Origin: an uncultured Candidatus Saccharibacteria bacterium
GTDB lineage: Bacteria > Patescibacteriota > Minisyncoccia > Phycocordibacterales > Zambryskibacteraceae
Reading direction: 5' to 3'
Assembly: GCA_964504255.1 (NCBI GenBank)
Contig: CAZDDU010000002.1
Location: forward strand, 60,385 to 124,384
Length of the DNA stretch: 64,000 bases
The stretch's first letter is position 1, and each line of letters begins with the position of its first letter. This document shows, piece after piece, positions 1 through 34,833 of this stretch. The notes below the pieces were generated by a model. The model worked only from the letters and a program-made list of their open reading frames with translations, did no database searches and had not been told where the DNA came from. A program made the translations under genes and the position numbers.

Positions 1-119
1 GGCACGGCTGGCGTTGAGCCCTTGGGACCAAGAGCCAGAATCATGAACGCCACGAGGACCCCGATGATCACCAGAACGATCATGACCTCAACGAGGGCAT
101 AGCCTTTGCTGTTCTGCAC
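1..119 (-). CDS. Type IV pilin / pseudopilin N-terminal region. Partial: the gene runs off the window start.
   Basis: The reverse-strand translation from a GTG at 117-119 reads (M)QNSKG|YALVEVMIVLVIIGVLVAF... This is a class III (prepilin) signal: KG followed by an aromatic residue, Glu at +5 and a hydrophobic helix. A GGAG sits 5 nt upstream of the GTG. Confidence 0.6.
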   Translation of the reverse strand, partial: MQNSKGYALVEVMIVLVIIGVLVAFMILALGPKGSTPAV

Positions 120-812: not shown

Positions 813-2228
813 TTAGAAACTTTTGAATTCTTCTTCGGCTTTGCCGTAGTTAGAGTAGTCAATCTCAACGAAGGTGTTGTTACGAGTGTGGTAGTCGAGA
901 ACAACCTCGCCTAGAGGGCCGTTTCTGTGCTTCGCGATAATTAGGCTCTTCCTCTGCACTTCCTTCATCTTGCCGGATTCGTCTCGGATACCGTCTTCGT
1001 CGGCGTGGATAAACATCACTAAGTCGGCGTCTTGCTCGATAGAACCTGAGTCACGGAGGTCAGAGAGCTTAGGTTTGCCACCACGAGTTTCGACTGCGCG
1101 CGAGAGCTGGGATAGTGCGAGGACAGGAATCTGGAGCTCACGAGCCATGTGCTTCAAGCCTCTCGAGATCTCGGTAATCTGCTGGACCATGTTGTCACCG
1201 GCACGAGCGTTCGTAGGTGCCATGAGTTGGAGGTAGTCAACGACTAGTAGTTGGAGACCCTTCTCAATCTTTAGCTTCCTTGCTGCAGAGCGCATCTTCA
1301 TAATGGTGTTACCAGACTGATCATCGATGTATATAGGGGTACGAGAGAGGTCATCTAGAGCAGTAGAAATGTTTTTGAATATGTCGTCGCGCCAAGAGCC
1401 TTGTTGTGTGCGCACTCCCTTTCGAATAACAGATGCATCAACCTTAGACTGTGCAGACACAATACGGTCAACGAGCTGGTCGGCACTCATTTCGAGAGAG
1501 AAGATTCCAATAGGGGTCTGGTGGAGACTCGCTGTTCTTCTCGCGACATCGAGGGCGAAGGCCGTCTTACCCACAGATGGGCGAGCCGCGAGGATGATGA
1601 GGTCCGACTTCTGGAAGCCACCAAGAATATCGTCTAGGGACTTGAATCCCGTAGGTACTCCGCGAAGCTCGTGCTCGGCGGAAGAAAGTTTGTCGAATCT
1701 CTCGAATGCTTCTTGAAGGAGGGGAGTAAGGTCTTTGAAGTTCTCGGTAGAGGAGAAGTGCTGAGTGATGTCGAAGATTTTCTTCTCTGCTTGGTCAAGA
1801 ATATTCTCTAGCTCACCAGCTTCGTTGAAGCCGAGGTGCGAGATGTACTCAGACGCATCAATGAGCTCGCGCATCATGAACTTCTTCCTCACTATCTCTG
1901 CATAATGCTTGATGTTTGCAGAAGAGGGTACGGTGGTGGTGAGTTCAGTCAGGAAGCTTGCACCTCCGACTCTCTCGAGTAGCCCCTTCTCCTTAAGCTT
2001 CGAAGAAAGAGAGAGTATGTCTATTGGCTCACGCTTCGCGAAGAGCTCGAGCATGGCCTCGAATATGGTGCGGTGCTTCTCGAAGTAGAAGGATGCAGGA
2101 CTCGAGATATCCATGATCTCGTAGATGGCGTCAGGCCTGAGCATGACAGAACCGAGGAGAGCCATCTCAGCTTCTAGGTTGTGTGGAGGGACGCGAATCT
2201 TCAAACTCGCTAACGGTGATTCTTGCAT
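813..2228 (-). CDS. dnaB: Replicative DNA helicase DnaB.
   Basis: 471 aa. The N-terminus reads PHNLEAEMALLGS. Walker A is GKT. The RecA-like C-terminus reads LSDLRDSGSIEQDADLVMFIH. Confidence 0.9.
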   Translation of the reverse strand: MQESPLASLKIRVPPHNLEAEMALLGSVMLRPDAIYEIMDISSPASFYFEKHRTIFEAMLELFAKREPIDILSLSSKLKEKGLLERVGGASFLTELTTTVPSSANIKHYAEIVRKKFMMRELIDASEYISHLGFNEAGELENILDQAEKKIFDITQHFSSTENFKDLTPLLQEAFERFDKLSSAEHELRGVPTGFKSLDDILGGFQKSDLIILAARPSVGKTAFALDVARRTASLHQTPIGIFSLEMSADQLVDRIVSAQSKVDASVIRKGVRTQQGSWRDDIFKNISTALDDLSRTPIYIDDQSGNTIMKMRSAARKLKIEKGLQLLVVDYLQLMAPTNARAGDNMVQQITEISRGLKHMARELQIPVLALSQLSRAVETRGGKPKLSDLRDSGSIEQDADLVMFIHADEDGIRDESGKMKEVQRKSLIIAKHRNGPLGEVVLDYHTRNNTFVEIDYSNYGKAEEEFKSF

Positions 2229-2296
2229 GTGTGTATTCTACCCCTTCTACTATCTCTAGGTAAACGCCTCAAAAGTGGAGAAGCGGTGCGTAAGAT

Positions 2297-2776
2297 GTGT
2301 ATAATTATGAGATGACAGGAATCCATGAAAATATGTTAAATAGCATTACATCAGAATACCCAACAGAGGTAGAAAAGATGAAGGGATACGAGAAGCTAAA
2401 GCCAGAGATATCGAAGGCAGAACTACAGGCTCTTTGCGAGGGGGACGAAGGACTAACTGAACTCTTCGACGACATGATTGAGTATTTCTACAGATATACA
2501 GCAGATGTTTGTGCTCAAGAGAGTTTAAAGCAGGAAAAAGATGGAATTCAAAAGAATATGGAGGAGATACGTGCCCTTGAGGCGCCAAGAGGTGCCCTAC
2601 ATGACGCAATGATTGATTCGGTAAAGATACTGGTCAGAAATATGGTTAGAAAAGGAAAGGATGTGAGTTGGTATCAAAATATTGACAAAAAGGGTCGTAT
2701 AGGTTATGGTAATTGGGCTCTTTTGATCACTTTCTCAGATATTCTCGAACGAAACCAGAGCCAGGAGTCCCAGTGA
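2297..2776 (+). CDS. Hypothetical protein, the first gene of a coupled three-gene operon. The start may be the ATG at 2312.
   Basis: An ORF of 159 aa. A TATAAT sits at 2300-2305 inside the annotated N-terminus, which suggests the real start is at 2312 (MTGIHENML). Its stop, TGA, overlaps the GTG of the next ORF as GTGA. Confidence 0.5.
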   Translation: MYNYEMTGIHENMLNSITSEYPTEVEKMKGYEKLKPEISKAELQALCEGDEGLTELFDDMIEYFYRYTADVCAQESLKQEKDGIQKNMEEIRALEAPRGALHDAMIDSVKILVRNMVRKGKDVSWYQNIDKKGRIGYGNWALLITFSDILERNQSQESQ

Positions 2777-2961
2777 CGCAGGAGAAGCTCGATCGTAGGG
2801 CTGTGATCCTGCATTATGCAGGGATTGCGGCCAAGGAGATGCTTGAGAAGAATCTGGTGAAGCGCGCAGACATCAAATCTGAAAGGAAGGAGATAGAGGA
2901 GTCGCTCAAGATGACTCCTGAAGAAATCCTTTTCGAGGCGACGAACCTGACGCAAAGGTGA
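2773..2961 (+). CDS. Small acidic/helical hypothetical protein. The ORF track shows it as 2713-2961 with a TTG start; a GTG at 2773 overlapping the upstream stop is more likely.
   Basis: A GTGA overlap with the upstream stop. Its own TGA stop overlaps the GTG/ATG start of the 901-aa gene, again as GTGA. That is translational coupling on both sides. Confidence 0.4.
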   Translation: MTQEKLDRRAVILHYAGIAAKEMLEKNLVKRADIKSERKEIEESLKMTPEEILFEATNLTQR

Positions 2962-5663
2962 TGTATGGGCTCTCCGATATTCGGGGAGCCTATTTCTTTG
3001 ATATAATTTTGAACATGTCAGAAACAATTCGTTTTAATACTGTAGAGGAAGAGCTTTCCTACCTTCGCTCGAAGGTAGAGTCGTATAAGGAGAATCCACT
3101 TGAGGTTAAGCGTACTATTTTAAACACTCACCAAGAGCTCCCAGTGCAAGCGAGGAACACCCAAGATGTTAAACAGAGCTTAGATACTTTCTCAAACAAG
3201 CCCGCAGACTCGCAGCTGGACCACATGATGGATGTAAGCCGGACTAAGGGTGTGATGCATGCACTCTCTGTAGCGGAGAAGCTCGAGGATTGGAAGCATG
3301 AAGACGACTTCCATGACTACCTAGTCGAGCTGGTTCGTGGCGGCTTCAGGCCAAGAGATGTGAAGGAGAGTGGGCCTATGTATCGCGCACTCAATATGAC
3401 CCTCTTTGAGATACAAATGCCGGACACAGGTACCGACGGCACGAAGGATAGAGACTTGAAGTCGGTCATCTCCTCGATGGAGCAGTTCTATGCTGGGATG
3501 ATCTCGGTGTCCGAGGAGGCTACAAGAGGTAAGAACTATTTTGTACTTGAAGTGGCCAATAGCGAGGGGAGTGAGGAAGCCAACTTTTTCGTCTCGGTAC
3601 CGAATGAGAAGAGGGACTTATTCGAGAAGCATCTTAGATCCGTATTTCCTAATGTGAGACTAGTAGAGAGGAGTAGGGATTACAACATCTTCTCCGAGCA
3701 CGCTGTCACCGCCGGAGCTGTAGCAGAGCTGAATCAACCTAGTGCGTACCCGCTCAAAACCTATGAGGAGTTTGACCATGACCCACTGAGCTCGCTCCTA
3801 CAATCTTTTTCGAAGATTCCTAGAGACGGCTCAGGTGCAGCGCTGCAAATAATATTTAACCCACAAGGAGATGCTTATACCAAGAAGTATACCTTCGCGA
3901 AGAAGCGAATAGAGAAGGGTCATAGAGCAGGGGACATCTTGGCCGAAAGGTCTTTAATGGGCGAGTTTGTGCACGGACTGTCAGAACTCTTCGGTGGTAG
4001 GAAAATTGACGCGACCAAGGTAGATGCAGAGGCGCTCAAGAATATTGATAAGAAGCTCATGAGCCCTATTGTGGCGACAAGTATTCGCATCGCTGTCTCG
4101 GCACAAAATGAGAAGGAGGCTAAAAGTATTGTGTCGAGCATTGCGTCCTCCTTCAACCAGTTTGAATTGCCAAATGTAAATAGGCTTAATTGGCGCGAGG
4201 CCAAGGGCAAGAAGTTCTACAGGAACTTCACCTTCCGACTTTGGGATGATACGGAGATAATGCCACTTAACCTGAAGGAGCTCACAGGACTACTCCACTT
4301 CCATACCACCTCACTCTCATCTAGTGCTCAACTCAAAACCTCTAAGTCTTCAGAAGCTCAGGCACCCCTCTCAATGTCCTCAGGTGGTACAGTGCTCGGT
4401 ACAAACCACTTCCAAGGACACGATAGAACTGTACACATCAGTTACGAAGATAGGCTGCGTCACATATACACTATTGGTCAGACAGGCACCGGTAAGTCGA
4501 CTCTGCTTAAGAATATTATTATCCAAGACATCAAGGCAGGGAATGGCGTATGTATGATCGATCCGCACGGTCAAGATGTGCAGGATGTCCTTGCTAGCAT
4601 CCCTAGAGAGAGGATGGACGATGTGATCTACTTCGACCCAGCATCGACAGATAGACCAATGGCCCTAAACATGCTCGAGTACGATAATGACAAGCCAGAG
4701 CAGAAGACCTTCGTGGTGAACGAACTTTTCAGCATCTTCCAGAAGCTCTATGGCAAGGTGCCAGAGAGTATGGGACCAATGTTCGAACAGTACTTCAGGA
4801 ATGCGACTATGCTAGTTATCGACGACCCATCTAGTGGCTCGACCTTGCTCGATGTATCAAGAGTACTCTCTAATAAGGAGTTTCGAACTATGAAGCTAGA
4901 GAAGTGTACTAACCCAGTAGTTCTACAATTCTGGCGTGAAGTAGCGGATAAGGCTGGTGGAGAAGCGGCGCTAGCTAATATCGTGCCTTACATCACCTCG
5001 AAGTTTGACGTCTTCCTAGCGAACGACATCATGCGTCCGATCATTGCTCAGGAAAAATCCTCAATAAACTTCCGAGAGATAATGGATAGTAGGAAGATCT
5101 TGCTTGTTAACTTGTCGAAGGGGAGACTTGGTGATGTGAATGCTAATTTGATTGGTCTCATCCTCGTTGGAAAGATTCTTATGGCGGCACTTTCAAGGTC
5201 TGGTTCTACGGGCTTCCCACCCTTCTACCTACACATAGACGAGTTCCAGAATATTACTACCGACTCTATCGCGACCATTCTCTCTGAGGCTCGCAAATAT
5301 AAGCTCTCTCTCACTGTTGCGCACCAGTTCATCGCTCAGCTGGAGGAGAATATTAAGAACGCAGTCTTCGGCAACGTTGGATCTATCATTGCCTTCCGAG
5401 TAGGAGCAGACGATGCAGAGTACTTAGAGAAACAGTTTACCCCAGTCTTCTCCGCCAAGGACCTTATGAATATTGATAACAGAAATGCGTTCTTGAAGTT
5501 ACTCGTTGATGGCAGACCAGAGAAGCCATTCTCCATGGAGACTCTTGCTCCTAGTGAGGGCAACAGAGAATTGATAGATATCTTGAGTGAAAGGACCAAG
5601 CTGAAGTACGGCAGAAATAGGGAAGAGGTGGAGAAAGAAATCCTTGCCAAATACGGCGCTTAA
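2958..5663 (+). CDS. Large soluble P-loop NTPase. The C-terminal half is VirD4/TraG/TrwB-like (FtsK-HerA superfamily, coupling-protein-like). The N-terminal 450 aa have no recognisable domain.
   Basis: 901 aa. Walker A is GQTGTGKST. A CMIDPHGQD motif follows, resembling the DPKGE motif of VirD4/TraG. Walker B and the region that follows read YLHIDEFQNIT...LTVAHQ, like the TraG-D_C DEF.N region. No TM helices are predicted. Confidence 0.6.
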   Translation: MMYGLSDIRGAYFFDIILNMSETIRFNTVEEELSYLRSKVESYKENPLEVKRTILNTHQELPVQARNTQDVKQSLDTFSNKPADSQLDHMMDVSRTKGVMHALSVAEKLEDWKHEDDFHDYLVELVRGGFRPRDVKESGPMYRALNMTLFEIQMPDTGTDGTKDRDLKSVISSMEQFYAGMISVSEEATRGKNYFVLEVANSEGSEEANFFVSVPNEKRDLFEKHLRSVFPNVRLVERSRDYNIFSEHAVTAGAVAELNQPSAYPLKTYEEFDHDPLSSLLQSFSKIPRDGSGAALQIIFNPQGDAYTKKYTFAKKRIEKGHRAGDILAERSLMGEFVHGLSELFGGRKIDATKVDAEALKNIDKKLMSPIVATSIRIAVSAQNEKEAKSIVSSIASSFNQFELPNVNRLNWREAKGKKFYRNFTFRLWDDTEIMPLNLKELTGLLHFHTTSLSSSAQLKTSKSSEAQAPLSMSSGGTVLGTNHFQGHDRTVHISYEDRLRHIYTIGQTGTGKSTLLKNIIIQDIKAGNGVCMIDPHGQDVQDVLASIPRERMDDVIYFDPASTDRPMALNMLEYDNDKPEQKTFVVNELFSIFQKLYGKVPESMGPMFEQYFRNATMLVIDDPSSGSTLLDVSRVLSNKEFRTMKLEKCTNPVVLQFWREVADKAGGEAALANIVPYITSKFDVFLANDIMRPIIAQEKSSINFREIMDSRKILLVNLSKGRLGDVNANLIGLILVGKILMAALSRSGSTGFPPFYLHIDEFQNITTDSIATILSEARKYKLSLTVAHQFIAQLEENIKNAVFGNVGSIIAFRVGADDAEYLEKQFTPVFSAKDLMNIDNRNAFLKLLVDGRPEKPFSMETLAPSEGNRELIDILSERTKLKYGRNREEVEKEILAKYGA

Positions 5664-5757
5664 ACTTAGCTCCCTTTGTGCTTGACAAACAAAGTATTCT
5701 ATGCTACCTTGAAAAAAGATAGCACCTCACTCGCGTACTCGTCTCGGAGTCAATCGT

Positions 5758-5961
5758 ATGTCCAAGACCACCCAAATTGTCACCTGTTCGATCCTGCTTG
5801 GTCTCAGTCTTGTTCTGGTAGGTGTCGTAGCTTTCTCGGATACGTTGGACCACTATCGACACATTGGGCTGATTTTCTTCGGCAGTATCTGCGCGGGAGC
5901 GATCTCCGCGGTTCAACTCAGAATCCTCATCGAGGATCCAAACGATAACTGTGTCGAGTAG
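5758..5961 (+). CDS. Small two-TM membrane protein.
   Basis: 67 aa with two hydrophobic helices. A GGAG lies 8 nt upstream of the ATG. It sits 95 nt downstream of the large ATPase. Confidence 0.45.
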   Translation: MSKTTQIVTCSILLGLSLVLVGVVAFSDTLDHYRHIGLIFFGSICAGAISAVQLRILIEDPNDNCVE

Positions 5962-5974
5962 TCAAGAAGTAACG

Positions 5975-6020
5975 CCCCGTGGGTGCACGACGAAAGTCTT
6001 GCATTCGCGGGGCTTTCTAT
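5975..6020. terminator. GC stem with a long loop and a T-run, between convergent genes.
   Basis: GCCCCG...CGGGGC followed by TTTCTATTT. It lies between the 67-aa gene (plus strand) and the cysS end (minus strand). Confidence 0.3.
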
Positions 6021-7409
6021 TTACACCTTTGAAATTTTTGTACCCATAACTGTGTCCTCAATTTTATATCCCAAGTTGTTTATTTTTGAGCGAAGTTCAT
6101 CAGATTCTGCAAAATTTTTGGTATTTTTTGCTTCAATGTATTGGTTGAGTAGTTGATTTATCTCGTCAGATAGATATTCTGATACTTTCATGTCATCTGC
6201 AAGGTTTAAGCCAAGTACTTTATCAAAATTTAAAATAGTGTTTTGCTTAACGTCATCATTCATTGATTCTTCTTTGACAAGTTGCCACAAAACCGATAAT
6301 GCTTCTGGGGTATTTAGGTCATTTTCAATAGCAATTGTGAATTCATCCATATAACTATTTGATATTTCATTAGATCTGATTTGACCACCATTTATAAAAA
6401 CTTTTCTACTCATGAAACTTCTTAGTTTTGAGTAAGCATTTTCGGCAGCTTCTAGTGCCTCCCAAGAGAAGTTAGTTGGAGTGCGGTAGTGGGAGAGAAG
6501 GAGGAAGTAGCGATAGGCGAGAGGAGAGAAGCCTTTCTCTACAATGTCTTTAAGCTTGATGATGTTACCATCACTCTTGGCCATCTTGGAGCCGTCGAGT
6601 ATGACGAACTCGTTGTGGAGCCAAACGCGAGCAAACTCACATCCACATGCTGCCTCGCTCTGTGCTATCTCGTTGTTGTGATGTATTGGAGCGAGGTCGG
6701 TGCCACCAGTGTGGATGTCGAAGGTTTTGCCTAAATACTTTTGACTCATAGCAGAGCACTCTATATGCCAACCGGGGAAGCCGTGACCCCAAGGAGCTTC
6801 GTACCCAAGTTCGGTATTAAATTTCCAAAGAGAGAAGTCTCTTTGATTTCTTTTCTCACTTTTCTCTCCGATTCTCGACTCAGTAGTGCCGCCGATACCA
6901 CCAAGCTTCCCATAATGTGGATCCTTAGATGTATCAAAGTAAAGTCCATCAGAAGTTGCGTAAACAAAACCCTTCTCGTCCAAAGTCTTAATAAGCTCAA
7001 CGTCCTCCTTGATGTGCTCTGACGCCTTGGGTAAGTGGTGTGGCGGGAGGATGTTTAAACTGAGTGTATCCCCCTTGAACCTCTCTGTGTAAAAGTCTGC
7101 AAGCTCTTGCATGGCCTCCATGGTCAAGGATTTGCCCTCTCGCTTAAGAGCCTTGGTCATCTTGTCTTCACCATCATCACCGTCGCCTGAGAGATGACCA
7201 ATGTCGGTGATGTTTATCACCTGGGTCACTTTGAGGTTAGTGTACTCGAAGTATCGCCTCACTAGGTCGGCTAGGATAAATGAGCGGAGGTTACCAATGT
7301 GCACAAAGTCGTATACTGTGGGGCCACAATGATACATCTTAACCTCACCATCATTAAGAGGTACGAATGGCTCGACCTTGTTGGTAAGCGAATTATGGAA
7401 GGAAATCAT
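6021..7409 (-). CDS. cysS: Cysteine--tRNA ligase.
   Basis: A HIGH-type motif (HIGNLRSF) and a KMSKS-type motif (KMAKSDGN). The N-terminus ISFHNSLTNKVEPFVPLNDGEVKMYHCG aligns with the CysS N-terminus. The start is chosen at M18 of the ORF (ATG at 7409); the ORF itself extends to 7460. Confidence 0.88.
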   Translation of the reverse strand: MISFHNSLTNKVEPFVPLNDGEVKMYHCGPTVYDFVHIGNLRSFILADLVRRYFEYTNLKVTQVINITDIGHLSGDGDDGEDKMTKALKREGKSLTMEAMQELADFYTERFKGDTLSLNILPPHHLPKASEHIKEDVELIKTLDEKGFVYATSDGLYFDTSKDPHYGKLGGIGGTTESRIGEKSEKRNQRDFSLWKFNTELGYEAPWGHGFPGWHIECSAMSQKYLGKTFDIHTGGTDLAPIHHNNEIAQSEAACGCEFARVWLHNEFVILDGSKMAKSDGNIIKLKDIVEKGFSPLAYRYFLLLSHYRTPTNFSWEALEAAENAYSKLRSFMSRKVFINGGQIRSNEISNSYMDEFTIAIENDLNTPEALSVLWQLVKEESMNDDVKQNTILNFDKVLGLNLADDMKVSEYLSDEINQLLNQYIEAKNTKNFAESDELRSKINNLGYKIEDTVMGTKISKV

Positions 7410-7446
7410 TATTGCTAGTATAATAGTCAGAATGGATTTAGGAAAG

Positions 7447-8664
7447 ATGTCACGACCCACTATAGTAGCTTTCGTATTAGTTGCCTTGCTCTCCTTTCAA
7501 GTTGGTTACAAGCGGGGAGAGAGCGTAACTCTCATTAGTAATGTAAAGAGTGGACTAGCTAATATTGAAGATGGTCAGCCAACGACTGTAGACTTCGCGC
7601 CCTTCTGGAAGGCGTGGTCGATAGTTAATAAGGACTTCGTGCCCACAGGCACCTCTACGAAGATTGCGACAGATCAAGATAAGGTATGGGGCGCTATAGA
7701 GGGCATGGTCGCATCACTCGACGATCCTTATACAGTCTTCTTCCCACCAGTGGAGTCGAAGCAATTTGCGTCGGACATCAAAGGTAGCTTCAGTGGTGTG
7801 GGTATGGAGGTTGGCCAGGAAGATGGGATCATCACTGTTATCTCACCACTCAAGGGCTCTCCTGCAGAGGCTGCAGGACTTCGACCTGGGGATAAGATTC
7901 TTAAGGTTGATGACAAGGATGTGACCAAACTGACTGTTGAGGAAGCAGTAACTTACATCAGAGGTCCTGAAGGTACGACTGTAACTATCAATGTCTTTAG
8001 ACAGGGCAAGACTGCGCCGTTCGATATCAAGGTGGTAAGACAGATCATCAATGTCCCAGTTATTAATACTGAAGAGCTTGATGGGGGGATATTTAGAATC
8101 TCACTATACAGCTTCACTGAAAACTCTGCGGTGCTCTTCCGCTCAGCACTCCGCGAATTCATCGAGTCTGACAGTGACAAACTACTTCTGGATCTACGAG
8201 GTAACCCAGGTGGGTACCTAGAGACCGCAGTTGATATGGCATCTTGGTTCCTGCCATCTGGAACTCCAGTTATTCGTGAGGATAAGGGAGAGGGCAAGGA
8301 GGAGAATGTCTATCGCTCTAAGGGTTATGACATATTCAACAATGGTCTCAAGATGGCGATATTGGTCGACGCTGGTTCTGCATCTGCGTCAGAGATCCTT
8401 GCTGGCGCACTCTCTGAACACGGCATAGCGACTCTCATAGGCGACACCACCTTCGGTAAGGGGTCAGTACAAGAGCTCTTGCCAGTAACCAAGGACACAT
8501 CTATCAAGGTCACTATCGCTCGTTGGCTTACTCCAAACGGTAACTCAATATCAAAGCAGGGTATAACACCAAAGATCATTATCAAGAGAACTGAGGAGGA
8601 TATTAAGTCTGGTCGAGATAGGCAACTCGAGCGCGCAGTTGAATTCCTAAAGACTGGGAAGTGA
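7447..8664 (+). CDS. Carboxyl-terminal processing (S41, tail-specific) protease with a PDZ domain.
   Basis: A signal/anchor sequence (MSRPTIVAFVLVALLSF). A PDZ segment reads GIITVISPLKGSPAEAAGL. The S41 catalytic region reads DLRGNPGGYL...SASASEILAGA. The ORF track starts at 7378; the ATG at 7447 has an AGGAAAG upstream. Confidence 0.85.
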   Translation: MSRPTIVAFVLVALLSFQVGYKRGESVTLISNVKSGLANIEDGQPTTVDFAPFWKAWSIVNKDFVPTGTSTKIATDQDKVWGAIEGMVASLDDPYTVFFPPVESKQFASDIKGSFSGVGMEVGQEDGIITVISPLKGSPAEAAGLRPGDKILKVDDKDVTKLTVEEAVTYIRGPEGTTVTINVFRQGKTAPFDIKVVRQIINVPVINTEELDGGIFRISLYSFTENSAVLFRSALREFIESDSDKLLLDLRGNPGGYLETAVDMASWFLPSGTPVIREDKGEGKEENVYRSKGYDIFNNGLKMAILVDAGSASASEILAGALSEHGIATLIGDTTFGKGSVQELLPVTKDTSIKVTIARWLTPNGNSISKQGITPKIIIKRTEEDIKSGRDRQLERAVEFLKTGK

Positions 8665-10218: not shown

Positions 10219-11499
10219 ATGAAGACCTTTGGGGAAAGAGTTGAGCACTTTGGGCGATCCATTTCTCTTGGATGGTTCTTGGCATATAGGCAAGTAAGAC
10301 GATCGAGCTTTGCTACTACGGCACTTATAGTCTTTGTGATGACTCTGACATTCCTCAACCTTGTTGTGGTGAGAGGGGTACTTGTGGGGTTGATACAGGG
10401 TTCTACGAATATCTATAAAGATAATTACGCTGGTGACATTATTATCACTAAATTACCAAAGAAGAATTATATAGAGCACAGTCAGGGTATTATCAGCAAT
10501 TTGGAGAGCCTTCCAGGTATAAGGGCATATACCTATCGCTATGCAGAGGGAGGGGAGATTGAAGCAAAGTACAAGGAGAAGGTTCGTCAGACAGATGATG
10601 CTAATTCTGCTGGGACCACTATTGTCGGTCTCGATCCGGATCGGGAGAATTCGGTCACACAAATTTCAAAGTTTATTATCGAAGGACGTTTTCTGAACTC
10701 AGATGATGTGGACGGTATAGTTCTTGGGTCAAGCTTACTCAAGAAGTATTTAAATATTGAGTCTCCAAATATTTCCTTGCTTGAAGACGTGGAGATCGGT
10801 GACAAGATCAGGGTTAGCATAGGAGGATTCCGTAAGGAATTTATTGTTCTTGGATTCTTGAAGAGCAAGACTGATGAAATAGATTTCAAGGCATTTATTG
10901 TAGAGTCTACAATGCGAGCTCTTGTGGGTCGCGGAGATTACAATGTTGATGAAATATCGGTAGTTCTCGAGCCGGGCTTGGATATGAATTTGATGAAAGA
11001 GAGTATCTTGCGTACTGGAGCAGGGGATTATGCAAGAGTGCTTACATGGGAGGAGTCATTGCCGAAATTTTTGTTAGATATTCAAAACACCTTTAGCATT
11101 CTAGGTAATGCCATAGGTTCAATCGGTTTGGTTGTTGCATCTATAACCATTTTTATCGTTATCTTCATCAATGCCATTACAAGAAGGAAGTACATTGGGA
11201 TACTTAAAGGTATTGGTGTTGATTCGAGTGCTATAGAGATGGCATATGTAATGCAGGCGATATTCTATGCCTTATTCGGCATAGCAGCTGGTCTCACTAT
11301 ACTTTATGGATTCCTGGTTCCATTCATTGATGCACATCCAATCAAATTCCCATTCTCTGATGGTATCTTGGTGGCAGAACTTGGTTCAACAATGATTCGA
11401 GCGCTGTTGCTTCTCATCGCGACGATTATTGCCGGATTCATCCCAGCCCGCTTGGTTGTTAAACAAAATACATTAGACGCTATTTTAGGCAAAACATAA
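10219..11499 (+). CDS. ABC transporter permease, FtsX/MacB-like.
   Basis: 426 aa. An N-terminal TM helix, a large extracytoplasmic domain and a C-terminal 3-TM FtsX-like bundle. Confidence 0.85.
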   Translation: MKTFGERVEHFGRSISLGWFLAYRQVRRSSFATTALIVFVMTLTFLNLVVVRGVLVGLIQGSTNIYKDNYAGDIIITKLPKKNYIEHSQGIISNLESLPGIRAYTYRYAEGGEIEAKYKEKVRQTDDANSAGTTIVGLDPDRENSVTQISKFIIEGRFLNSDDVDGIVLGSSLLKKYLNIESPNISLLEDVEIGDKIRVSIGGFRKEFIVLGFLKSKTDEIDFKAFIVESTMRALVGRGDYNVDEISVVLEPGLDMNLMKESILRTGAGDYARVLTWEESLPKFLLDIQNTFSILGNAIGSIGLVVASITIFIVIFINAITRRKYIGILKGIGVDSSAIEMAYVMQAIFYALFGIAAGLTILYGFLVPFIDAHPIKFPFSDGILVAELGSTMIRALLLLIATIIAGFIPARLVVKQNTLDAILGKT

Positions 11500-12194
11500 T
11501 GATCGAAGCAAAGTCATTAATTAAAAAGTTTAAGAGCGGAGATGATTTTATCTATGCTATTAGGGATGTCTCATTTAAGGTAGAGAGTGGGGAGTTCGTG
11601 GCTATTACAGGCAGATCTGGCTCGGGCAAAAGTACTCTTATGTACCAACTAGGTCTCCTCGATCACCCTAGTGATGGGCGGATCATTATAGATGGCCAGG
11701 ATATCACCGACCTCTCGGAGAAGGCTCGAACATCTCTGAGGTTGAACTCCTTGGGTTACATCTTTCAAGATTACGCCCTAATACCTGAACTTACTGCGTT
11801 TGAGAATGTTCTTATACCACTTATGATGCAGGGTCTCACAAACGAACAAGCAAAGAAGAAGGCTATTAAGTCTCTGGAAAGAATTGGACTAGGAGATAGA
11901 CTAGATCACTTGCCATCAATGCTCTCGGGTGGCCAACAACAAAGAGTCTCTATTGCGAGAGCTATAGCACATGAGCCAAAAATTATATTTGCTGATGAGC
12001 CAACAGCGAACCTAGATTCAGAGTCATCAAAATTAGTTTTAGAGAACTTTAAGGAGTTAAATAAAGAAGGACAAACAATTTTGATGGTGACTCATGAACC
12101 AGAATATGCGAAAATGACTGACAGAGTCATCACACTCTCCGACGGTAAGATCTTAAGCGATGAAAAACACAGACACCATCATGCAAAAAATTAA
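11499..12194 (+). CDS. ABC transporter ATP-binding protein (MacB/LolD-like).
   Basis: Walker A is GRSGSGKST. The ABC signature is LSGGQQQRVSIARA. Walker B is IIFADEPT. An ATAATG start/stop overlap links it to the permease. Confidence 0.9.
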   Translation: MIEAKSLIKKFKSGDDFIYAIRDVSFKVESGEFVAITGRSGSGKSTLMYQLGLLDHPSDGRIIIDGQDITDLSEKARTSLRLNSLGYIFQDYALIPELTAFENVLIPLMMQGLTNEQAKKKAIKSLERIGLGDRLDHLPSMLSGGQQQRVSIARAIAHEPKIIFADEPTANLDSESSKLVLENFKELNKEGQTILMVTHEPEYAKMTDRVITLSDGKILSDEKHRHHHAKN

Positions 12195-13692
12195 ATCATT
12201 TATAAAAACAAGAACTAAACTTCAAATAAGCATCTTTGTTCTTGTAATCATTATCGGATTCTTCTTGTTTACAGGAGGTGACAAGCCAAAGACCGAGTCT
12301 ATGGTCGAGAGGGGGGTGGTGGAGCAAGAAGTGGTAGCTACAGGTAAGGTGCGCTCTGCGAGCGAGGTAGACCTAGGCTTCGAGAGAAGTGGCAAGGTGG
12401 TAAGAGTAAACGCCAAGGTGGGTGACATGGTAGAAGAGGGTGCAACTCTCGTTGTACTCGACCAGAGTGACCTCTTAGCCGACATCAAGAAGGCTAATGC
12501 CTCCCTCAGCGAGGCACTTATCAATCTCGAGAAGGCTAAAAGAACGTCTTCCTCTGACTACTCCAATGCCTACAACAAGCTCTATATAGCTCTAACTGAC
12601 GCATATACGGACGCTAGAGACTCAGTGCTAAACACCGCTGACCGCTTCTTCTGGTCTCCTAAGAGTTCGTCCCCCAAACTCGAGATCAGTCATGTATCAA
12701 ATGGTAATGACATAAAGTTTTATATTGATGACACATTGGCAAGGAACATTAGTGTCGAGAGAGGTGCTTTAAACGATGTGTTTGCTGCATGGGACTTGTC
12801 TATAAGCGGCGCGAAGACTAGCACAAACGGGTTGGATGACGAACTTGCACTAACAGAGAAGAATATTGATAGAGTGAAGAATTTCTTGGCGGACCTTTCT
12901 TACATTCTCAACACAATCAAAGGTTATGATCAGTCGTATGAAAGTATTATTGCAGGCTATAAGTCCTCGATGACTACTGCACGCACTGCGCTCAACACCT
13001 CGCTCTCCGAACTCTTAACAGCTAAGTCGAGCTACTTGGATGCGCCAAACGAAGTATCGTCTGGATCTGGCTTTGATGATGTGCTCCAAGAGGAGTCAAG
13101 AGTGGAGGCGACTAGGGCTGATGTAGAATCCTTGCAGTCTGAGCTAAGCAAGACAGTGCTCAAGTCTCCAATTTCTGGTGTAATAACCAAGCAGGATGCT
13201 AAGGTGGGGGAGATAGTGACATCGGGCATGCAGACCACCTCAGTTGTGGCCGACAAGAACCTAGAAATAGTTGCCGATATATCGGAGGTGAACATTGGCA
13301 AGATAGAAGCAAGTAACACTGTGAAGATCTCTCTAGATGCCTTTCCTGGCGAGACAATACTAGGTAGGGTGCTTTATGTTGAACCAGGAGACAAGTTGGT
13401 AGATGGCGTGGTGAACTATGAGGTTCGAGTAGTCTTCGTTGGTGCTACACCAGAGAACATAAAGACAGGTTTAACATCTAGTTTGGCTATCAGCACCGAG
13501 AGGAAGGAGGATGTGCTCCGTATCCCTTCCTTCGCTGTTGAAAGGAGATCTGGTAAGAGGTTTGTGATCGTTAAGGGCAATGAGGGCGAGGAAGAGAGAG
13601 AAATACAGGTCGGAATCCTGGGTAAGGACGGCTTCGTAGAGGTCATAGAAGGACTTTCGGATGGTGAGATAGTACTCAGTGCCCAAAAGTAA
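12160..13692 (+). CDS. Periplasmic adaptor (HlyD/MacA-like membrane fusion protein).
   Basis: 510 aa. An N-terminal TM helix, a long coiled-coil/hairpin, a beta-barrel and a C-terminal MP domain. It overlaps the end of the ATPase gene. Confidence 0.75.
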   Translation: MKNTDTIMQKIKSFIKTRTKLQISIFVLVIIIGFFLFTGGDKPKTESMVERGVVEQEVVATGKVRSASEVDLGFERSGKVVRVNAKVGDMVEEGATLVVLDQSDLLADIKKANASLSEALINLEKAKRTSSSDYSNAYNKLYIALTDAYTDARDSVLNTADRFFWSPKSSSPKLEISHVSNGNDIKFYIDDTLARNISVERGALNDVFAAWDLSISGAKTSTNGLDDELALTEKNIDRVKNFLADLSYILNTIKGYDQSYESIIAGYKSSMTTARTALNTSLSELLTAKSSYLDAPNEVSSGSGFDDVLQEESRVEATRADVESLQSELSKTVLKSPISGVITKQDAKVGEIVTSGMQTTSVVADKNLEIVADISEVNIGKIEASNTVKISLDAFPGETILGRVLYVEPGDKLVDGVVNYEVRVVFVGATPENIKTGLTSSLAISTERKEDVLRIPSFAVERRSGKRFVIVKGNEGEEEREIQVGILGKDGFVEVIEGLSDGEIVLSAQK

Positions 13693-29972: not shown

Positions 29973-31604
29973 CTACGCTAAAGGTAGTTCGATGTAGAAG
30001 GTTGAACCCTTACCTGCTCCATGAGTTTCTGCCCAGACACGACCTTTGTGAGCTTCTACCACTCCTTTAACGAAGGCTAGACCGTATCCTGTCGAATTAA
30101 CGTTGTATCTCAATGAATCCTTGCCTCTGCCTCCCTTGGTGAACAGTTTTGGCATATCATCCGATGTAATACCAATACCGGTGTCACTAACAGTGAGTAG
30201 AATTTTCTTAATTCTCTTTTCGAGATGGATGCTAACTCCACCAAGTTCAGTGTAAACAATCGAGTTATTGATCAAGTTCTTCACAGATTCTCGAAGTTGT
30301 ACTTCATCACCAGTAATATTGAAACTCTCACCACTAGGATTGAACTCGATACTTAAGTTTTTGTTCTTAGCAGCATCCTCTGACTCATTAATGGCAAGTT
30401 CAACAACTGTTTTGAAGTCAATCTGCTTCATTGTGAAGGGCAATTTTCCACTTTCTGCACTGGAACCTCTTAGGATTTGCTGTACGAAGTCTATTCCTTC
30501 TGTAAGCGATTTGAATCCTTCGTCGGCCATGGGCTTAGCACTTTCAGGCAGGCCATAGTCCTTCTCTTGTATGAGCTCAATGAAGATGTTTCGTCCTTTG
30601 GAGAGATACCCCTTGATCTGATGGTTAATGATGTGGATAAGGTTTTCTTGACCGTCATTAGCAATTTGTAGCAACTCCTTCTGCTCAACTTCTCTCTGGA
30701 CACTTCTAATAAGTAGGTATCCGAGTGCTGTAAATATGATTAAGGTGAAGACGACTACTTCTTTGAGTACTGTTATGTCGGTAATGAGCAGTGTAGCAAA
30801 TAGAAGTATCCATTGAGCTGTTACGAGTACTTGTGCAGAAATAAGTTTGACGCTAAACAGATGGTATTTGACTATAAGGTATGCAATAACAGCAATAAAC
30901 ACAGGGACGCCGAATAACCCGTACTGACCTATTTGCCAGTCAAAGGACAAACTACCGATAATGTTTCCAAGAGAGAAAGAGAGCAAGAAGAAGACCATTC
31001 CCGAGGTAACTAAAGCGATTTTCTTTCTTTCGGATGAATCTTTGAGATCGAGGAATTTTCTTAGTCCAATTATAAGAATCCATAGAGAGAAGATGACCTC
31101 GATAAAGTAACCATAGAATGGCAGCAACCCTTCCCCAACCTCTCTTTCGCAGTTGGTAAGATCAAAATAAGAAACATTAAGGCCAGTGGATGCAAAAAGG
31201 ATGGTCGGGAGAAGAAGTATTCCGACAGTAAGCTTCTCGTTGAAACTCTTGCTAGGACCATTAATGAATGATGTTATGAAGAACAAAGAACCTGCAAAGA
31301 TCATGGGTTCTATCATGTTGATCATCGACCAAAAGAACATGATGAAAGAAGGTTTTTCAGAAGCCCAAAGTATCAAGTCGAAGGTCAACCAAAGAGATAA
31401 AAGAAGTGTGGTGAACAAAAACCATCTAGATGCCTGTAGTTTGGGATTCTTGTAAAAAATAATTAGGGCCAGCGGTATAGAAACGACAATTGGCAAAAGA
31501 TGTGAGTAGTAAATAAGGTGATCAAAGACGTTGTTGGATATTATGAAAAATCTTGCTGGGTCCCATTCACATATTTGTGCATATTCTGAAATTGTTCTGA
31601 GCAT
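29973..31604 (-). CDS. Membrane sensor histidine kinase (orphan; no adjacent response regulator).
   Basis: An 8-TM N-terminal region. The H-box region and the HATPase_c G-boxes (DTGIGI, GYGLAF) are present. Confidence 0.85.
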   Translation of the reverse strand: MLRTISEYAQICEWDPARFFIISNNVFDHLIYYSHLLPIVVSIPLALIIFYKNPKLQASRWFLFTTLLLSLWLTFDLILWASEKPSFIMFFWSMINMIEPMIFAGSLFFITSFINGPSKSFNEKLTVGILLLPTILFASTGLNVSYFDLTNCEREVGEGLLPFYGYFIEVIFSLWILIIGLRKFLDLKDSSERKKIALVTSGMVFFLLSFSLGNIIGSLSFDWQIGQYGLFGVPVFIAVIAYLIVKYHLFSVKLISAQVLVTAQWILLFATLLITDITVLKEVVVFTLIIFTALGYLLIRSVQREVEQKELLQIANDGQENLIHIINHQIKGYLSKGRNIFIELIQEKDYGLPESAKPMADEGFKSLTEGIDFVQQILRGSSAESGKLPFTMKQIDFKTVVELAINESEDAAKNKNLSIEFNPSGESFNITGDEVQLRESVKNLINNSIVYTELGGVSIHLEKRIKKILLTVSDTGIGITSDDMPKLFTKGGRGKDSLRYNVNSTGYGLAFVKGVVEAHKGRVWAETHGAGKGSTFYIELPLA

Positions 31605-31831
31605 ACTATTCTTCTATTTCTAAAAGTGATTGTTGAAAAAGGGCTTCATCTTCAGCAAATTCAAAATTTTGCTCAACAATATATTTCTTATACATCAAAA
31701 AAGTTGATACCAAGACAATAACTAAAAATATTGATGAGAGTATCTTAGCTCTTTTCTCCATTAATATTATTGTACACCGAATTTAAACTGAAAATCGCAC
31801 ATAATGATTTTTTTGTTAGTAAAAAGGGCCG

Positions 31832-32437
31832 CTAGTTGTTACTAGCGACCCTTCTCGATCTTGCGATGAGCCATACGGTACCATGTTGAAGTACGTAGTT
31901 CATCGGTAGGACCAAGTCCCACCATTTATCCCAACGGAGTGCAACAACCATGACCATGAGTGCGTATGATATGGTCCACACACCCCACGCTCTCGGTATC
32001 TCTTCATTGGGATCGTTCCAAGTGCTGCGGAAGATCGGAATGAATGTGATCCAAATGTCGAGCTCGAGTATAATGCTCGTCGAGTACTTATCTCCGGAGA
32101 GAAAGAAGTACAAGAGCACACTTGCATCAAGCATGATGACCAACAGGTCTGTCCTGTCGGGCATGCGGAGCCTCTCGAGCTTCGCAGCTTCGAGGAATGT
32201 GATGACTGCACCTATGGCACAGACGTAGTACGGCAACACCTTCACCCAGTCCTCAGAGAGATCCTGATAAAGGAAGATTACCGGAATACTAGTCAGCGCC
32301 CAGATGCCCCACGATGTTGCATTGGCTCTCACCTGACGTCGAGCAATGGCTCGGCAATAGACGAGATATCCAGCAAGCATGAAGATGCTTGCGATGAGAC
32401 TCAAGCTCTGCGCAAGAATGTTCATGGATTGCTCCAA
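31832..32437 (-). CDS. Polytopic membrane hypothetical protein.
   Basis: 201 aa with about 6 TM helices. Confidence 0.5.
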   Translation of the reverse strand: MEQSMNILAQSLSLIASIFMLAGYLVYCRAIARRQVRANATSWGIWALTSIPVIFLYQDLSEDWVKVLPYYVCAIGAVITFLEAAKLERLRMPDRTDLLVIMLDASVLLYFFLSGDKYSTSIILELDIWITFIPIFRSTWNDPNEEIPRAWGVWTISYALMVMVVALRWDKWWDLVLPMNYVLQHGTVWLIARSRRVASNN

Positions 32438-32489
32438 TTAAGTGAAAGATCTAATAACCTGATAAAAGTATAGCATAAAATATGGGTAC

Positions 32490-32518
32490 TTGTCAACATT
32501 TGATTATAAGGCTATAAT
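32490..32518 (+). promoter_or_regulatory. Promoter TTGTCA-17-TATAAT giving an essentially leaderless SET-gene mRNA.
   Basis: The -10 element ends 11 nt before the ATG at 32530. There is no Shine-Dalgarno sequence. Confidence 0.5.
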
Positions 32519-32529
32519 AAGCCTACGTT

Positions 32530-32949
32530 ATGTTGATGGTAAAAACAAAGCTTGGTAGAAGTGAAATTCATGGAATTGGACTCTTTGCCGATCAGTTTAT
32601 ACCTAAGGGTACTACTACCTGGGTTTTTGCTCCAGGATTTGATCTCAGAGTTGAGCATGATGATTTATTGAAACTCTCAGAACATGCTAGAAAAATGTTT
32701 TGGACTTATGCATATGTGGATAAGTTTAATAGTCATTACATACTTTGTTTTGACGATGAGCGCTTTATAAACCACTCTGAAGAGCCGAATGTTATCCAAA
32801 TGAGAAAGGATGGTGAGGCAGAAGGTATTGAGGTAGCAGCTCGTGACATCCAACCAGGTGAAGAGCTATTGGTAAACTATTACGACTTCGATAAAGATGC
32901 AGATAGAAAACTTAAAGGCCTTGGTATCTACGGCGGAAAGTACGATTAG
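32530..32949 (+). CDS. SET-domain protein (putative lysine methyltransferase).
   Basis: GIGLFADQFIPKG matches the GxG motif. RFINHSEEPN matches the NHSC-type motif. EELLVNYYD matches the ELxxDY motif. 139 aa. Confidence 0.75.
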   Translation: MLMVKTKLGRSEIHGIGLFADQFIPKGTTTWVFAPGFDLRVEHDDLLKLSEHARKMFWTYAYVDKFNSHYILCFDDERFINHSEEPNVIQMRKDGEAEGIEVAARDIQPGEELLVNYYDFDKDADRKLKGLGIYGGKYD

Positions 32950-32995
32950 TGCTTATTTGTATCTATTGTAGCATATTTACAATTAGCTTACGATA

Positions 32996-33023
32996 TTGCC
33001 AAATTTTTAGAAAAGCCTAGTAT
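32996..33023 (+). promoter_or_regulatory. Promoter TTGCCA-16-TAGTAT. Leaderless start for the M16 peptidase gene.
   Basis: The -10 element ends 7 nt before the ATG at 33031. Confidence 0.45.
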
Positions 33024-33030
33024 TTAGGCC

Positions 33031-34299: not shown

Positions 34300-34336
34300 T
34301 TCAATACAAGTTTACCCTTCGTTTCCTTGCAGATGG

Positions 34337-34822: not shown

Positions 34823-34833
34823 TACTTATATAT

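Follow-up and report, generated by a model that had tools for sequence, protein, structure and literature searches.

The ATPase encoded at positions 3015 to 5663 on the forward strand of the window (the whole stretch of 64,000 nucleotides analysed here) is most likely, as its sequence features suggest, a soluble translocation ATPase of the T4SS type, from the VirB4/VirD4 branch of the FtsK-HerA superfamily. For the locus as a whole, the best explanation is a soluble VirB4/VirD4-like coupling motor with an upstream gene pair that is accessory at most, a reading that we regard as somewhat probable rather than secure. Patescibacteria, which rely on host cells, account for much of bacterial diversity. 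A relaxase-less T4SS is essential to the one species tested, and neither what this apparatus transports nor which components energise and couple it is well understood. Because the gene is already annotated as VirD4-like and its N-terminal half is already a Pfam DUF, the window offers no novelty at the level of the family. What it does is give a clearer view of the CPR's orphan 'T4CP homologues', which appear to be soluble proteins with a VirB4-N-terminal-like domain in the anchor's place, unusually conserved, situated among core genes and with full-length relatives in Gram-positive conjugation clusters. It also makes a docking hypothesis concrete and testable for a protein found across several CPR lineages, and it cautions against taking lineage-specific neighbour genes for system components.

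The longest ORF at the locus (2958-5663, +) specifies 901 aa when counted from a GTG at 2958, but this start is a longest-ORF artefact: a 96%-identical homologue and all others begin with MSE..RFN, which places the start at ATG 3015 and gives a product of 882 aa. The P-loop module described in the original prediction was confirmed in the translation, with GQTGTGKST, DPHGQD, HIDEFQN and LTVAHQ all present. Walker A (GQTGTGKS, aa 488-495; 4476..4499, +) aligns with the P-loop of TrwB, and its residues G488-K494 are invariant in 48 homologues. The Walker B region (FYLHIDEFQN, aa 737-746; 5223..5252, +), located by translation and alignment, is followed by SEARKYKLSLTVAHQ, and D742, E743, F744, Q745, N746, R760, K761, H770 and Q771 are invariant in the same 48-homologue alignment. 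The claimed absence of transmembrane segments also held, as a Kyte-Doolittle scan found no TM-like segment and no hydrophobic stretch within aa 1-700; the hydropathy maximum (KD 1.92, aa 708-726) coincides with a core helix of the ATPase domain.

The product, predicted to be soluble, combines DUF8128 with a T4CP-type ATPase domain (AF2 model pLDDT 79), and the structural models used throughout are of moderate confidence (pLDDT 78-79, pTM 0.53-0.64). They begin with an N-terminal helical extension (aa 1-110, helices 10-107; 3015..3344, +) bearing a near-invariant EDDFH motif, in which D97 and H100 are invariant and E96 and D98 near-invariant across the 48-sequence alignment; this extension is specific to the long (Paceibacteria) form and is absent from the ~800-840-aa forms and from PHROG 5156. 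An alpha/beta domain forming the DUF8128 core (aa ~121-430; 3375..4304, +) and a RecA-like nucleotide-binding domain (aa ~459-850; 4389..5564, +) follow, the latter with an all-alpha insert (aa 561-677; 4695-5045, +). The N-terminal half (~450 aa) had been thought to match nothing recognizable, a view that can be abandoned: its homologues carry PF26449 (DUF8128), through which we assigned the domain to the window ATPase, and structural comparison points to a fold of the VirB4 N-terminal-domain type. In the profile search that had been proposed, the ATPase half exceeded the Pfam cut-offs for T4SS-DNA_transf (32.3 bits; cut-off 20.1), TraG-D_C (27.1; 22) and DUF87 (24.7; 23.2), its best NCBIfam matches were TraD/VirD4-like, all far under the model cut-offs, and its best match in a PDB profile search was TrwB. 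Pfam CagE_TrbE_VirB did not match the protein, and TIGR00929 (VirB4_CagE) gave 23.4 bits, over the P-loop only, against a cut-off of 643.1. The modelled C-terminal domain resembles VirB4, DptH, TrwB and HerA about equally, with FtsK and EccC, like HerA, also strong matches, so that the fold leaves the subfamily unfixed.

Membership in the DUF8128-containing T4CP-like ATPases of Patescibacteria is clear from homology, and the window ATPase is, by the same token, an unexceptional representative of a large and already catalogued Patescibacteria (CPR) family with strong conservation. This family comprises more than 1,000 clusters or homologues at 54-96% identity, aligned over 97-99% of their length, and relatives within that range all come from Parcubacteria/Patescibacteria, in agreement with the CPR-like genome originally proposed. 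At least 120 full-length homologues among the matches listed cover 89-99% of the query at 54-96% identity, and every one of them carries PF26449, which is paired in the homologues with T4SS-DNA_transf, TraG-D_C or DUF87. At least 590 confirmed matching stretches occur among species-representative genomes, the N-terminal half alone as query retrieved 777 clusters, and a shorter form of ~825 aa is found in Peregrinibacteria, Gracilibacteria, Portnoybacteria and Pacebacteria. GenBank names members variously 'type IV secretory system conjugative DNA transfer family protein', 'DUF87 domain-containing protein' and 'TraM recognition domain-containing protein'. Mean column identity across an alignment of 48 family sequences is 64%, a conservation beyond that of usual conjugative coupling proteins and compatible with a housekeeping role as well.

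A survey of 2,918 Patescibacteria genomes reported 5,713 VirD4-type T4CP homologues, only 148 of them near virB4 (PMC12102498), and members of the DUF8128 family are probably among those counted. The window ATPase shares with these homologues end-to-end homology, domain order, length and motifs, together with a chromosomal location away from virB4. Nothing material distinguishes it from them; it falls within the Paceibacteria subfamily of long proteins (~880-930 aa), and what sets the window clade apart is the acquisition of 154-aa and 62-aa neighbour genes. In Southlakia the T4SS genes proved essential for epibiotic growth, whereas a t4cp homologue, which may or may not carry DUF8128, was dispensable (PMC12102498).

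The likenesses to better-characterized systems fall on both halves of the protein. With VirB4 (TrwK of R388; Thermoanaerobacter VirB4 C-terminal domain; PDB 7o42, 8rtd, 4ag5) the window ATPase shares the predicted fold of the N-domain, which in R388 is part of the T4SS inner-membrane complex; however, it lies outside VirB4 sequence profiles, bears the additional helical N-extension, and has no VirB3/VirB6/VirB8-type membrane-component genes beside it, within ~6-8 kb, in the loci examined. With the VirD4/TrwB/TraG/DotL coupling proteins it shares a nucleotide-binding domain of the TrwB type in which an all-alpha insert separates Walker A from Walker B, but it has no N-terminal TM anchor and carries the VirB4-like half instead; as modelled, the VirB4-N-like domain (DUF8128) replaces the transmembrane anchor of classical coupling proteins. 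Conjugative T4CPs further differ from it in being far less conserved and in having relaxase or transfer genes nearby. The closest full-length relatives outside the CPR are two Bacillus 'DUF87 domain-containing proteins', WP_213380696.1 (B. subtilis NRS6107_2) and WP_286015288.1 (B. arachidis plasmid), near-full-length homologues of the short CPR form (E 4e-44) at only ~21-25% identity. Among them, hhalign recognized a DUF8128-like N-domain (probability 97.5%); the B. subtilis protein shows no TM-like segment, like the window ATPase, whereas in the B. arachidis protein an N-terminal TM helix is present and the N-domain is not detectably similar. Unlike the window gene, the genes for these relatives belong to conjugation clusters and are followed immediately by a replication-relaxation (relaxase) gene and by transfer genes of TcpD/TcpE-like and VirB4-like type.

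Our data suggest a model whereby the ATPase would form a ring-shaped NTPase on the cytoplasmic face of the membrane, with its VirB4-like N-domain docking onto the chromosomal, monoderm-conjugation-derived T4SS apparatus that is widespread in Patescibacteria. By analogy with the coupling protein in conjugation, the docked ATPase would act as both substrate receptor and motor. The T4SS of Patescibacteria mostly lacks relaxases and is related to the monoderm MPF-FATA class (PMC12102498). Neither T4SS genes (virB4, virB6, virB3, trsD) nor a relaxase were found within ~6 kb of the ATPase gene, either in the window or at any of the Patescibacteria loci covered; thus, the link between ATPase and T4SS is one of homology only, and, as a relaxase is lacking, a conjugative plasmid is an improbable substrate.

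The gene neighbourhood bears on a different explanation, that the family was exapted in the CPR ancestor as a soluble FtsK/HerA-like motor unrelated to T4SS, a housekeeping nucleic-acid translocase serving, for example, chromosome segregation, DNA repair or processing, or the handling of imported DNA or RNA. The window locus is flanked by DnaB/RecR and CysS, and the neighbours of the ATPase gene are housekeeping genes (Map, Adk and SecY upstream, Ndk downstream, and also YqeY, DnaB, CysS, DnaE and AspS), with a core-gene setting in which it frequently has Map and Ndk on either side or lies close to DnaB/RecR, DnaE and RmuC. Such a role would also suit a broad and strongly conserved family, mostly with one copy per assembly among the loci examined, as well as the strong fold matches to HerA, FtsK and EccC; virB4 is not nearby in most genomes, and exaptation of the VirD4-like homologues was left possible by the authors who surveyed them (PMC12102498). 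We nevertheless consider this explanation rather unlikely, since the N-domain fold is specifically that of the VirB4 N-terminus, the Bacillus relatives sit in conjugation gene clusters, neither a HerA-type HAS-barrel nor an FtsK gamma domain was detected by Pfam profiles or structure comparison, and gene neighbourhood is weak functional evidence in reduced genomes.

The motor might instead be the core of a dedicated module of three or four proteins, with the products of two small upstream genes and of a 67-aa ORF as adaptors or partners translationally coupled to a TM-less ATPase. The first of these genes (2312..2776, +) encodes a soluble, helical protein; its longest ORF runs from GTG 2297 (2297-2776, 159 aa), but alignment with five orthologues makes ATG 2312 (the M of 'MTGIHENM') the more likely start, giving 154 aa. 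It shows a weak DUF3232-like signal (E 7e-5; 23.4 bits, under the cut-off of 27.4). The second (2773..2961, +; alternatively 2713-2961, 82 aa) encodes a 62-aa protein without a match in Pfam, PADLOC or PHROG, its GTG start overlapping the preceding stop, and gene callers give the same 62-aa gene with the 4-nt overlap on an identical contig. Three ORFs chained by GTGA overlaps had been proposed here. The ORFs are real, GTGA does occur at both junctions (2773-2776 and 2958-2961) and the first overlap is plausible; the second dissolves with the start at ATG 3015, which leaves a spacer of 53 nt (2962-3014) containing a 13-bp hairpin, a T-rich tail and TATAAT.

The hairpin is GC-rich (2965-2993) and together with its tail forms an intrinsic-terminator-like element (2965..3003, +) that would end the two-gene unit; its MFE is -22.7 kcal/mol (z -3.77), and none of 200 shuffles folded equally well. 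A -10-like box, TATAAT, was read from the sequence 8 nt 5' of ATG 3015 (3001..3006, +). An equivalent hairpin and T-run occur in loci L001, L005, L006, L010, L086 and L087, and in the first five of these related loci the complete hairpin/T-run/-10 arrangement is kept, with TATACT, TATAAT or TACAAT equally spaced before the ATPase start. This pattern suggests that the ATPase gene is transcribed from a promoter of its own into an mRNA with no leader or a very short one, and that the small genes form a separate terminator-bounded transcription unit of, at most, lineage-specific accessories.

The distribution of the pair points the same way. Both genes are real and conserved, they always share a contig with the ATPase gene at a distance of 1.2 kb or less, and the GTGA overlap stands at their own junction in the window; co-location inside one shallow clade may, however, be plain synteny. 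Besides the window, the pair was found in only 5 of 85 related loci, representing four distinct places as L001 and L002 are the same one, and its protein family counts only 21 clusters among 5.8 billion proteins; the ATPase, whose usual setting (Map upstream, Ndk downstream) does without the pair, has more than 1,000. In L087, the pair and the ATPase gene are parted by an oppositely oriented ClpP gene and a further small gene, and in the nearest relative from beyond the clade with the pair (78% identity) the upstream position is taken by an unrelated 301-aa gene. The 67-aa two-TM ORF downstream (5758..5961, +), a candidate gene that is strongly hydrophobic (KD 2.6), does exist as described and is called as a gene on an identical contig, but it has no homologue across the 85 related loci and was seen only in this strain. 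A dedicated module is thus improbable in our view: the triad does not co-occur across related genomes, the upstream ORFs are not conserved with the ATPase, which on the original prediction's own terms counts against ATPase-specific adaptors in a coupled operon, and the pair is, on this comparative evidence, a set of real, lineage-specific neighbours in a narrow clade rather than conserved ATPase partners.

A bolder extension of the coupling-motor explanation, which we likewise hold to be improbable, would make the DUF8128 ATPases a third CPR-wide branch beside VirB4 and VirD4, joining a VirB4-type docking domain to a coupling-protein-type motor and powering uptake or exchange of host DNA or RNA via a relaxase-less, pilus-bearing T4SS. 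On that view the 154-aa/62-aa pair would supply substrate adaptors particular to its lineage, as DUF5663 proteins would in other clades, and these ATPases, if so, would rank as a core engine behind the life of ultrasmall bacteria as epibiotic parasites.

An anti-phage role, as a HerA-, DptH- or MADS-like NTPase component, had also been raised. A PADLOC match to mad8 (E 1.6e-14), weak HerA matches and ATPase-only relatives on non-mobilizable plasmids near recombinases and transposases are in its favour, but the PADLOC and HerA matches are limited to the shared P-loop core, and the N-domain is VirB4-like rather than a HAS-barrel. Unlike the defence-associated ATPases HerA, DptH (DndH) and MADS mad8, the DUF8128 family is spread broadly across its lineage and is not patchy or island-like; it is highly conserved and found in housekeeping contexts, with loci that look like vertical descent without island-like variability. 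No defence partner (NurA, Sir2, Dnd/Dpt or mad genes, or a nuclease, methylase or other effector gene) was adjacent in any locus examined, and we regard this role as very unlikely. That the gene belongs to an integrated conjugative or mobilisable element and serves as its coupling protein is hardly credible: the T4CP Pfam families above threshold, the relaxase adjoining the Bacillus plasmid relatives and the PHROG 5156 match (E 2e-79) would fit, but relaxase, integrase, T4SS genes and repeats are absent from the flanks, attachment sites, integrase and relaxase are absent from the 85 loci examined, the flanks show housekeeping synteny with related genomes, GC content (0.47 over 2001-6000) is inside the range met elsewhere in the window, and the conservation is typical of vertical inheritance.

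A further neighbour, whose link to the ATPase locus would be putative at most, is a type IV (pre)pilin-like gene whose 5' end lies at the window edge and which leaves the window there (1..119, -). As first described, it has a prepilin-type N-terminus (KGYALVEVMIVLVIIGVL; translation ...SKGYALVEVMIVLVIIGVLVAF...), here on the minus strand, and it is parted from the ATPase locus by RecR and DnaB.

The large protein, encoded at 3015-5663 (+), is an ordinary member of an already annotated, functionally uncharacterised family, and its original identification as a VirD4/HerA-superfamily ATPase without a detectable membrane anchor is correct. More than 1,000 homologues were found at E<=1e-3, and the best 120 of these share 54-96% identity over essentially the whole length and all carry PF26449, named DUF8128 in another output; a pattern scan with one genome per species confirmed at least 590 matches. 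Where annotated, the homologues are labelled 'DUF87 domain-containing', 'type IV secretory system conjugative DNA transfer family protein', 'TraM recognition domain-containing' or 'putative VirD4 component'. In an alignment of 48 sequences, mean column identity was 64%, and the Walker A, Walker B and RKY…AHQ motifs were invariant. The N-terminal 431 residues alone yielded 777 clusters at 50% identity, some of which are forms of ~800-840 aa without the first ~110 residues; Peregrinibacteria, Gracilibacteria, Portnoybacteria and Pacebacteria commonly have this short form, and it occurs in housekeeping contexts there too.

The four plus-strand ORFs named in the original prediction are all present in an ORF listing of the window (2297-2776, 2713/2773-2961, 2958-5663 and 5758-5961, the last encoding a 67-aa protein that is strongly hydrophobic on the Kyte-Doolittle scale), with a GTGA tetranucleotide at both ORF junctions, and the quoted motifs GQTGTGKST, DPHGQD, HIDEFQN and LTVAHQ all occur in the translation of the large protein. 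The reported absence of transmembrane (TM) segments was upheld by a Kyte-Doolittle scan, which revealed no transmembrane-like segment and a sole peak of 1.92 at aa 708-726, a core helix of the ATPase domain in the structure model. A prepilin gene had also been placed at the window edge, and translation of 1-119 on the minus strand gave a prepilin-type N-terminus (…KGYALVEVMIVLVIIGVL…) that runs out of the window. Window translations and Pfam labels of syntenic genes identified RecR, DnaB and CysS (all minus strand), a Ctp-type PDZ protease and ribosomal protein L9 as flanks of the locus, and the close relatives of the large protein are all from Parcubacteria/Patescibacteria. Thus, the descriptive part of the prediction is largely correct. 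Pfam scans of ten large window ORFs detected only housekeeping genes, peptidases, a histidine-kinase-type ATPase and a MacB-type efflux system, and no component of a type IV secretion system (T4SS) or of T4P.

The coupling-protein-type P-loop module was borne out by profile searches, in which the C-terminal half exceeded the thresholds of three Pfam families: T4SS-DNA_transf (32.3 vs 20.1), TraG-D_C (27.1 vs 22) and DUF87 (24.7 vs 23.2). The top NCBIfam matches, all well short of their models' cut-offs, were TraD/VirD4-like, and the best PDB sequence match of the family profile was TrwB. A full-length AlphaFold model (pLDDT 79, pTM 0.53) comprised a helical N-extension (aa 10-107), an alpha/beta domain (aa ~121-430) that leads into a disordered linker, and a RecA-like domain with a helical insert between Walker A and Walker B (aa 561-677). 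In fold comparisons, the highest score was obtained with the C-terminal domain of Thermoanaerobacter VirB4 (28.2), followed by the DptH C-domain (27.8), TrwB (26.0, 362 of 420 residues aligned), HerA (24.3), DotL (24.0) and Cag-beta (20.7). The N-terminal half, which had been said to match nothing recognisable, corresponds to DUF8128 in the homologues and, in the predicted structure, has the fold of the VirB4 N-terminal domain. The large protein therefore resembles VirB4 in its soluble architecture of N-domain plus ATPase domain; however, profiles do not place it there (TIGR00929, 23 bits vs a cut-off of 643; no CagE_TrbE_VirB match), and by sequence its ATPase domain is like those of the coupling proteins.

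The ORFs had been proposed to form a translationally coupled operon in which the small upstream proteins serve as adaptors. The GTGA overlap of genes 1 and 2 is plausible and is used by gene callers on an identical contig, but the second is an artefact of the longest ORF, given the starts of the homologues and the content of the spacer. The closest homologue (96% identity) is 882 aa long, the MSETIRFN-equivalent start (ATG 3015) is common to every homologue, and in a relative at 78% identity a stop codon four codons 5' of this start makes an N-terminal extension impossible. The 53-nt spacer from the 62-aa gene's stop (2961) to ATG 3015 was found by scanning and folding to hold a 13-bp GC-rich hairpin (2965-2993, +; -22.7 kcal/mol, z -3.8, with 0 of 200 shuffles folding equally well), then a T-rich tail and TATAAT (3001-3006, +), 8 nt 5' of the ATG. 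The orthologous spacers of five related loci (L001, L005, L006, L010 and L086) preserve the identical order of hairpin, T-run and TATACT/TATAAT/TACAAT, with 6-9 nt between the -10-like box and the ATG. Hence the small-gene pair looks like a terminator-bounded unit of its own, and the ATPase gene is probably transcribed from a separate promoter into a leaderless or short-leader mRNA. Alignment with orthologues indicates that the first small gene most likely begins at ATG 2312 (154 aa), and another TATAAT lies just 5' of this codon. A -10-like box (TATAAT/TATACT/TACAAT) thus precedes the ATG of both the first small gene and the ATPase gene by 6-9 nt (window 2276-2314 and 2995-3017), and no obvious Shine-Dalgarno sequence was seen at either start; this combination suggests that mRNAs of this Parcubacteria clade have a very short leader or none.

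The 154-aa and 62-aa genes are, as judged from their alignments, real genes: six copies of the pair align well over the whole length, and four of the six are distinct orthologues of the window pair. We searched all six-frame ORFs of 85 related loci with the 159-, 62- and 67-aa proteins, using phmmer and then an HMM built from the matches; besides the window, the pair was present in five of the 85 (four distinct places), and neither phmmer nor the HMM recovered further copies. The 67-aa ORF had no homologue in any of these loci, and --max searches with the small proteins against upstream ORFs of other sizes in L003, L008, L011, L016, L020 and L047 were negative. The 154-aa protein forms 21 clusters among 5.8 billion proteins, and the pair lies near the ATPase gene wherever the context is readable. 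In one locus (L087), an oppositely oriented ClpP gene and a further small ORF lie between the pair and the ATPase gene, and in L003/L009, where the ATPase is 78% identical, an unrelated 301-aa gene stands upstream in place of the pair. The 159-aa protein gave no meaningful PDB match by sequence, the small proteins matched nothing in PADLOC or PHROGs, and full-text searches of the literature library used returned no papers on DUF8128 or DUF3232.

The other neighbours of the ATPase gene differ among clades. In Paceibacteria, methionine aminopeptidase is directly upstream in 21 loci, adenylate kinase (20) and SecY (14) are found beyond it, nucleoside-diphosphate kinase is downstream (26), and YqeY also recurs (17); in Gracilibacteria-type loci, DnaE and AspS precede the ATPase gene and a PG_binding_1 protein follows it. 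Among the small and giant upstream genes of other clades, only DUF5663 recurs (2 loci). No partner gene conserved family-wide was found among the loci examined; the proposed triad is thus not conserved as a unit, and on these comparisons the operon and adaptor interpretation fails for the family as a whole. Several Parcubacteria loci have a giant same-strand ORF (862-1,920 aa) directly upstream of the ATPase gene (L004 938-5779, L064 118-5880, L070 670-5607, L079 3084-5864 and L045 3327-5915); that of L004 (1,613 aa), the one looked up in Pfam, had no match. L004 and L095 also have a small DUF5663 protein upstream, and these giant ORFs and DUF5663 proteins could be cargo, partners or coincidence. 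The peptidoglycan-binding PG_binding_1 protein (419-500 aa) adjoins the ATPase gene in two Gracilibacteria-type loci (L094 10595-11854 and L096 10709-12190) and is near the small-gene pair in one Minisyncoccota locus (L086 3247-4749).

Outside Patescibacteria (CPR), PHROG 5156 (function unknown) matched aa 128-878 at E 2e-79, and GenBank phages, mostly Bacillus phages, contained only distant relatives (20-27% identity). Two longer plasmid-encoded 'DUF87' proteins, of 913 aa in B. subtilis and 937 aa in B. arachidis, are more informative: the gene of each lies directly upstream of a replication-relaxation (relaxase) gene, with genes for a conjugal transfer protein, membrane proteins of the TcpD/TcpE family and a large VirB4-like ATP-binding protein further downstream. 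The B. subtilis protein has no TM-like segment, can be aligned over almost its whole length with short-form CPR proteins (E 4e-44), and its N-terminus matches the CPR N-half (hhalign probability 97.5%, E 7.5e-12); a single TM helix is present in the B. arachidis protein, whose N-terminus has no detectable similarity to the N-half (hhalign probability 1.9%). With these relatives next to relaxase genes, the architecture also holds the coupling-protein position in some Gram-positive conjugation clusters. Plasmids of Sulfitobacter, Bradyrhizobium, haloarchaea and Streptomyces encode ATPase-only relatives of the 395-aa size (29-36% identity). One on a non-mobilizable Sulfitobacter plasmid (NZ_CP081110.1, 5977-7164) shares 36% identity with the CPR protein's C-terminal half, has neither N-domain nor TM-like segment, and neighbours a DUF3768 protein, a recombinase and transposases; 220 of 280 plasmid matches were on non-mobilizable plasmids, and these stand-alone ATPases may be an unstudied soluble 'T4CP-like' clade.

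The Patescibacteria T4SS is akin to the monoderm MPF-FATA class, usually without a relaxase, and only 148 of 5,713 VirD4-type T4CP homologues in 2,918 genomes are near virB4; in Southlakia the T4CP homologue is non-essential whereas the T4SS genes are essential, for which reason the authors write that exaptation "cannot be ruled out" (PMC12102498, Quiñonero-Coronel et al. 2025). The Southlakia T4SS was found to be essential and to have no recognisable coupling or relaxase proteins (Wang et al. 2023, PMC10633639), and a review draws the same picture (PMC12857230). We infer a mechanism whereby the large protein would form a ring-shaped NTPase whose VirB4-like N-domain docks onto a chromosomal T4SS, or possibly another envelope machine, and would serve as T4SS substrate receptor and motor; the absence of relaxases makes a conjugative plasmid an unlikely cargo. 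The leading alternative is that the protein is a housekeeping nucleic-acid translocase whose connection with the T4SS has been lost. The very high sequence conservation and the core-gene neighbourhoods favour this alternative; the VirB4-specific N-domain fold and the relatives in conjugation clusters count against it. An integrated conjugative element is poorly supported and was rejected, since neither relaxase nor integrase flanks the gene and synteny is housekeeping, and so was a defence island, along with the earlier suggestion of an anti-phage NTPase, given the lineage-wide conservation of the gene and the lack of an effector partner beside it in any locus examined. What this analysis usefully adds is the VirB4-like fold of DUF8128, the tie to Bacillus plasmid proteins encoded beside relaxase genes, and the conserved terminator/promoter layout.

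Elsewhere in the window, a three-gene MacB-type efflux module (10219-13692, +), syntenic in L003, encodes an FtsX-like permease (426 aa), a 231-aa ORF that by this synteny is probably the ABC ATPase, and an HlyD-type membrane-fusion protein (510 aa). The region 30001-36000 has a G+C of 0.375-0.396, compared with 0.40-0.49 in the remaining window, and may have been horizontally acquired; a histidine-kinase-type ATPase protein (29973-31604, -), an M16 peptidase (33031-34299) and an M3 oligopeptidase (34834-36591, -) lie there. A 442-aa ORF (45034-46362, -) matched no Pfam family at E<=1e-5. Finally, the longest ORFs of CysS (6021-7460, -; GTG start, 479 aa) and the Ctp-type protease (7378-8664, +; TTG start, 428 aa) share 83 nt in a head-to-head overlap, and because their orthologues are shorter (453-466 and 409-410 aa), the real starts of both are probably further in.
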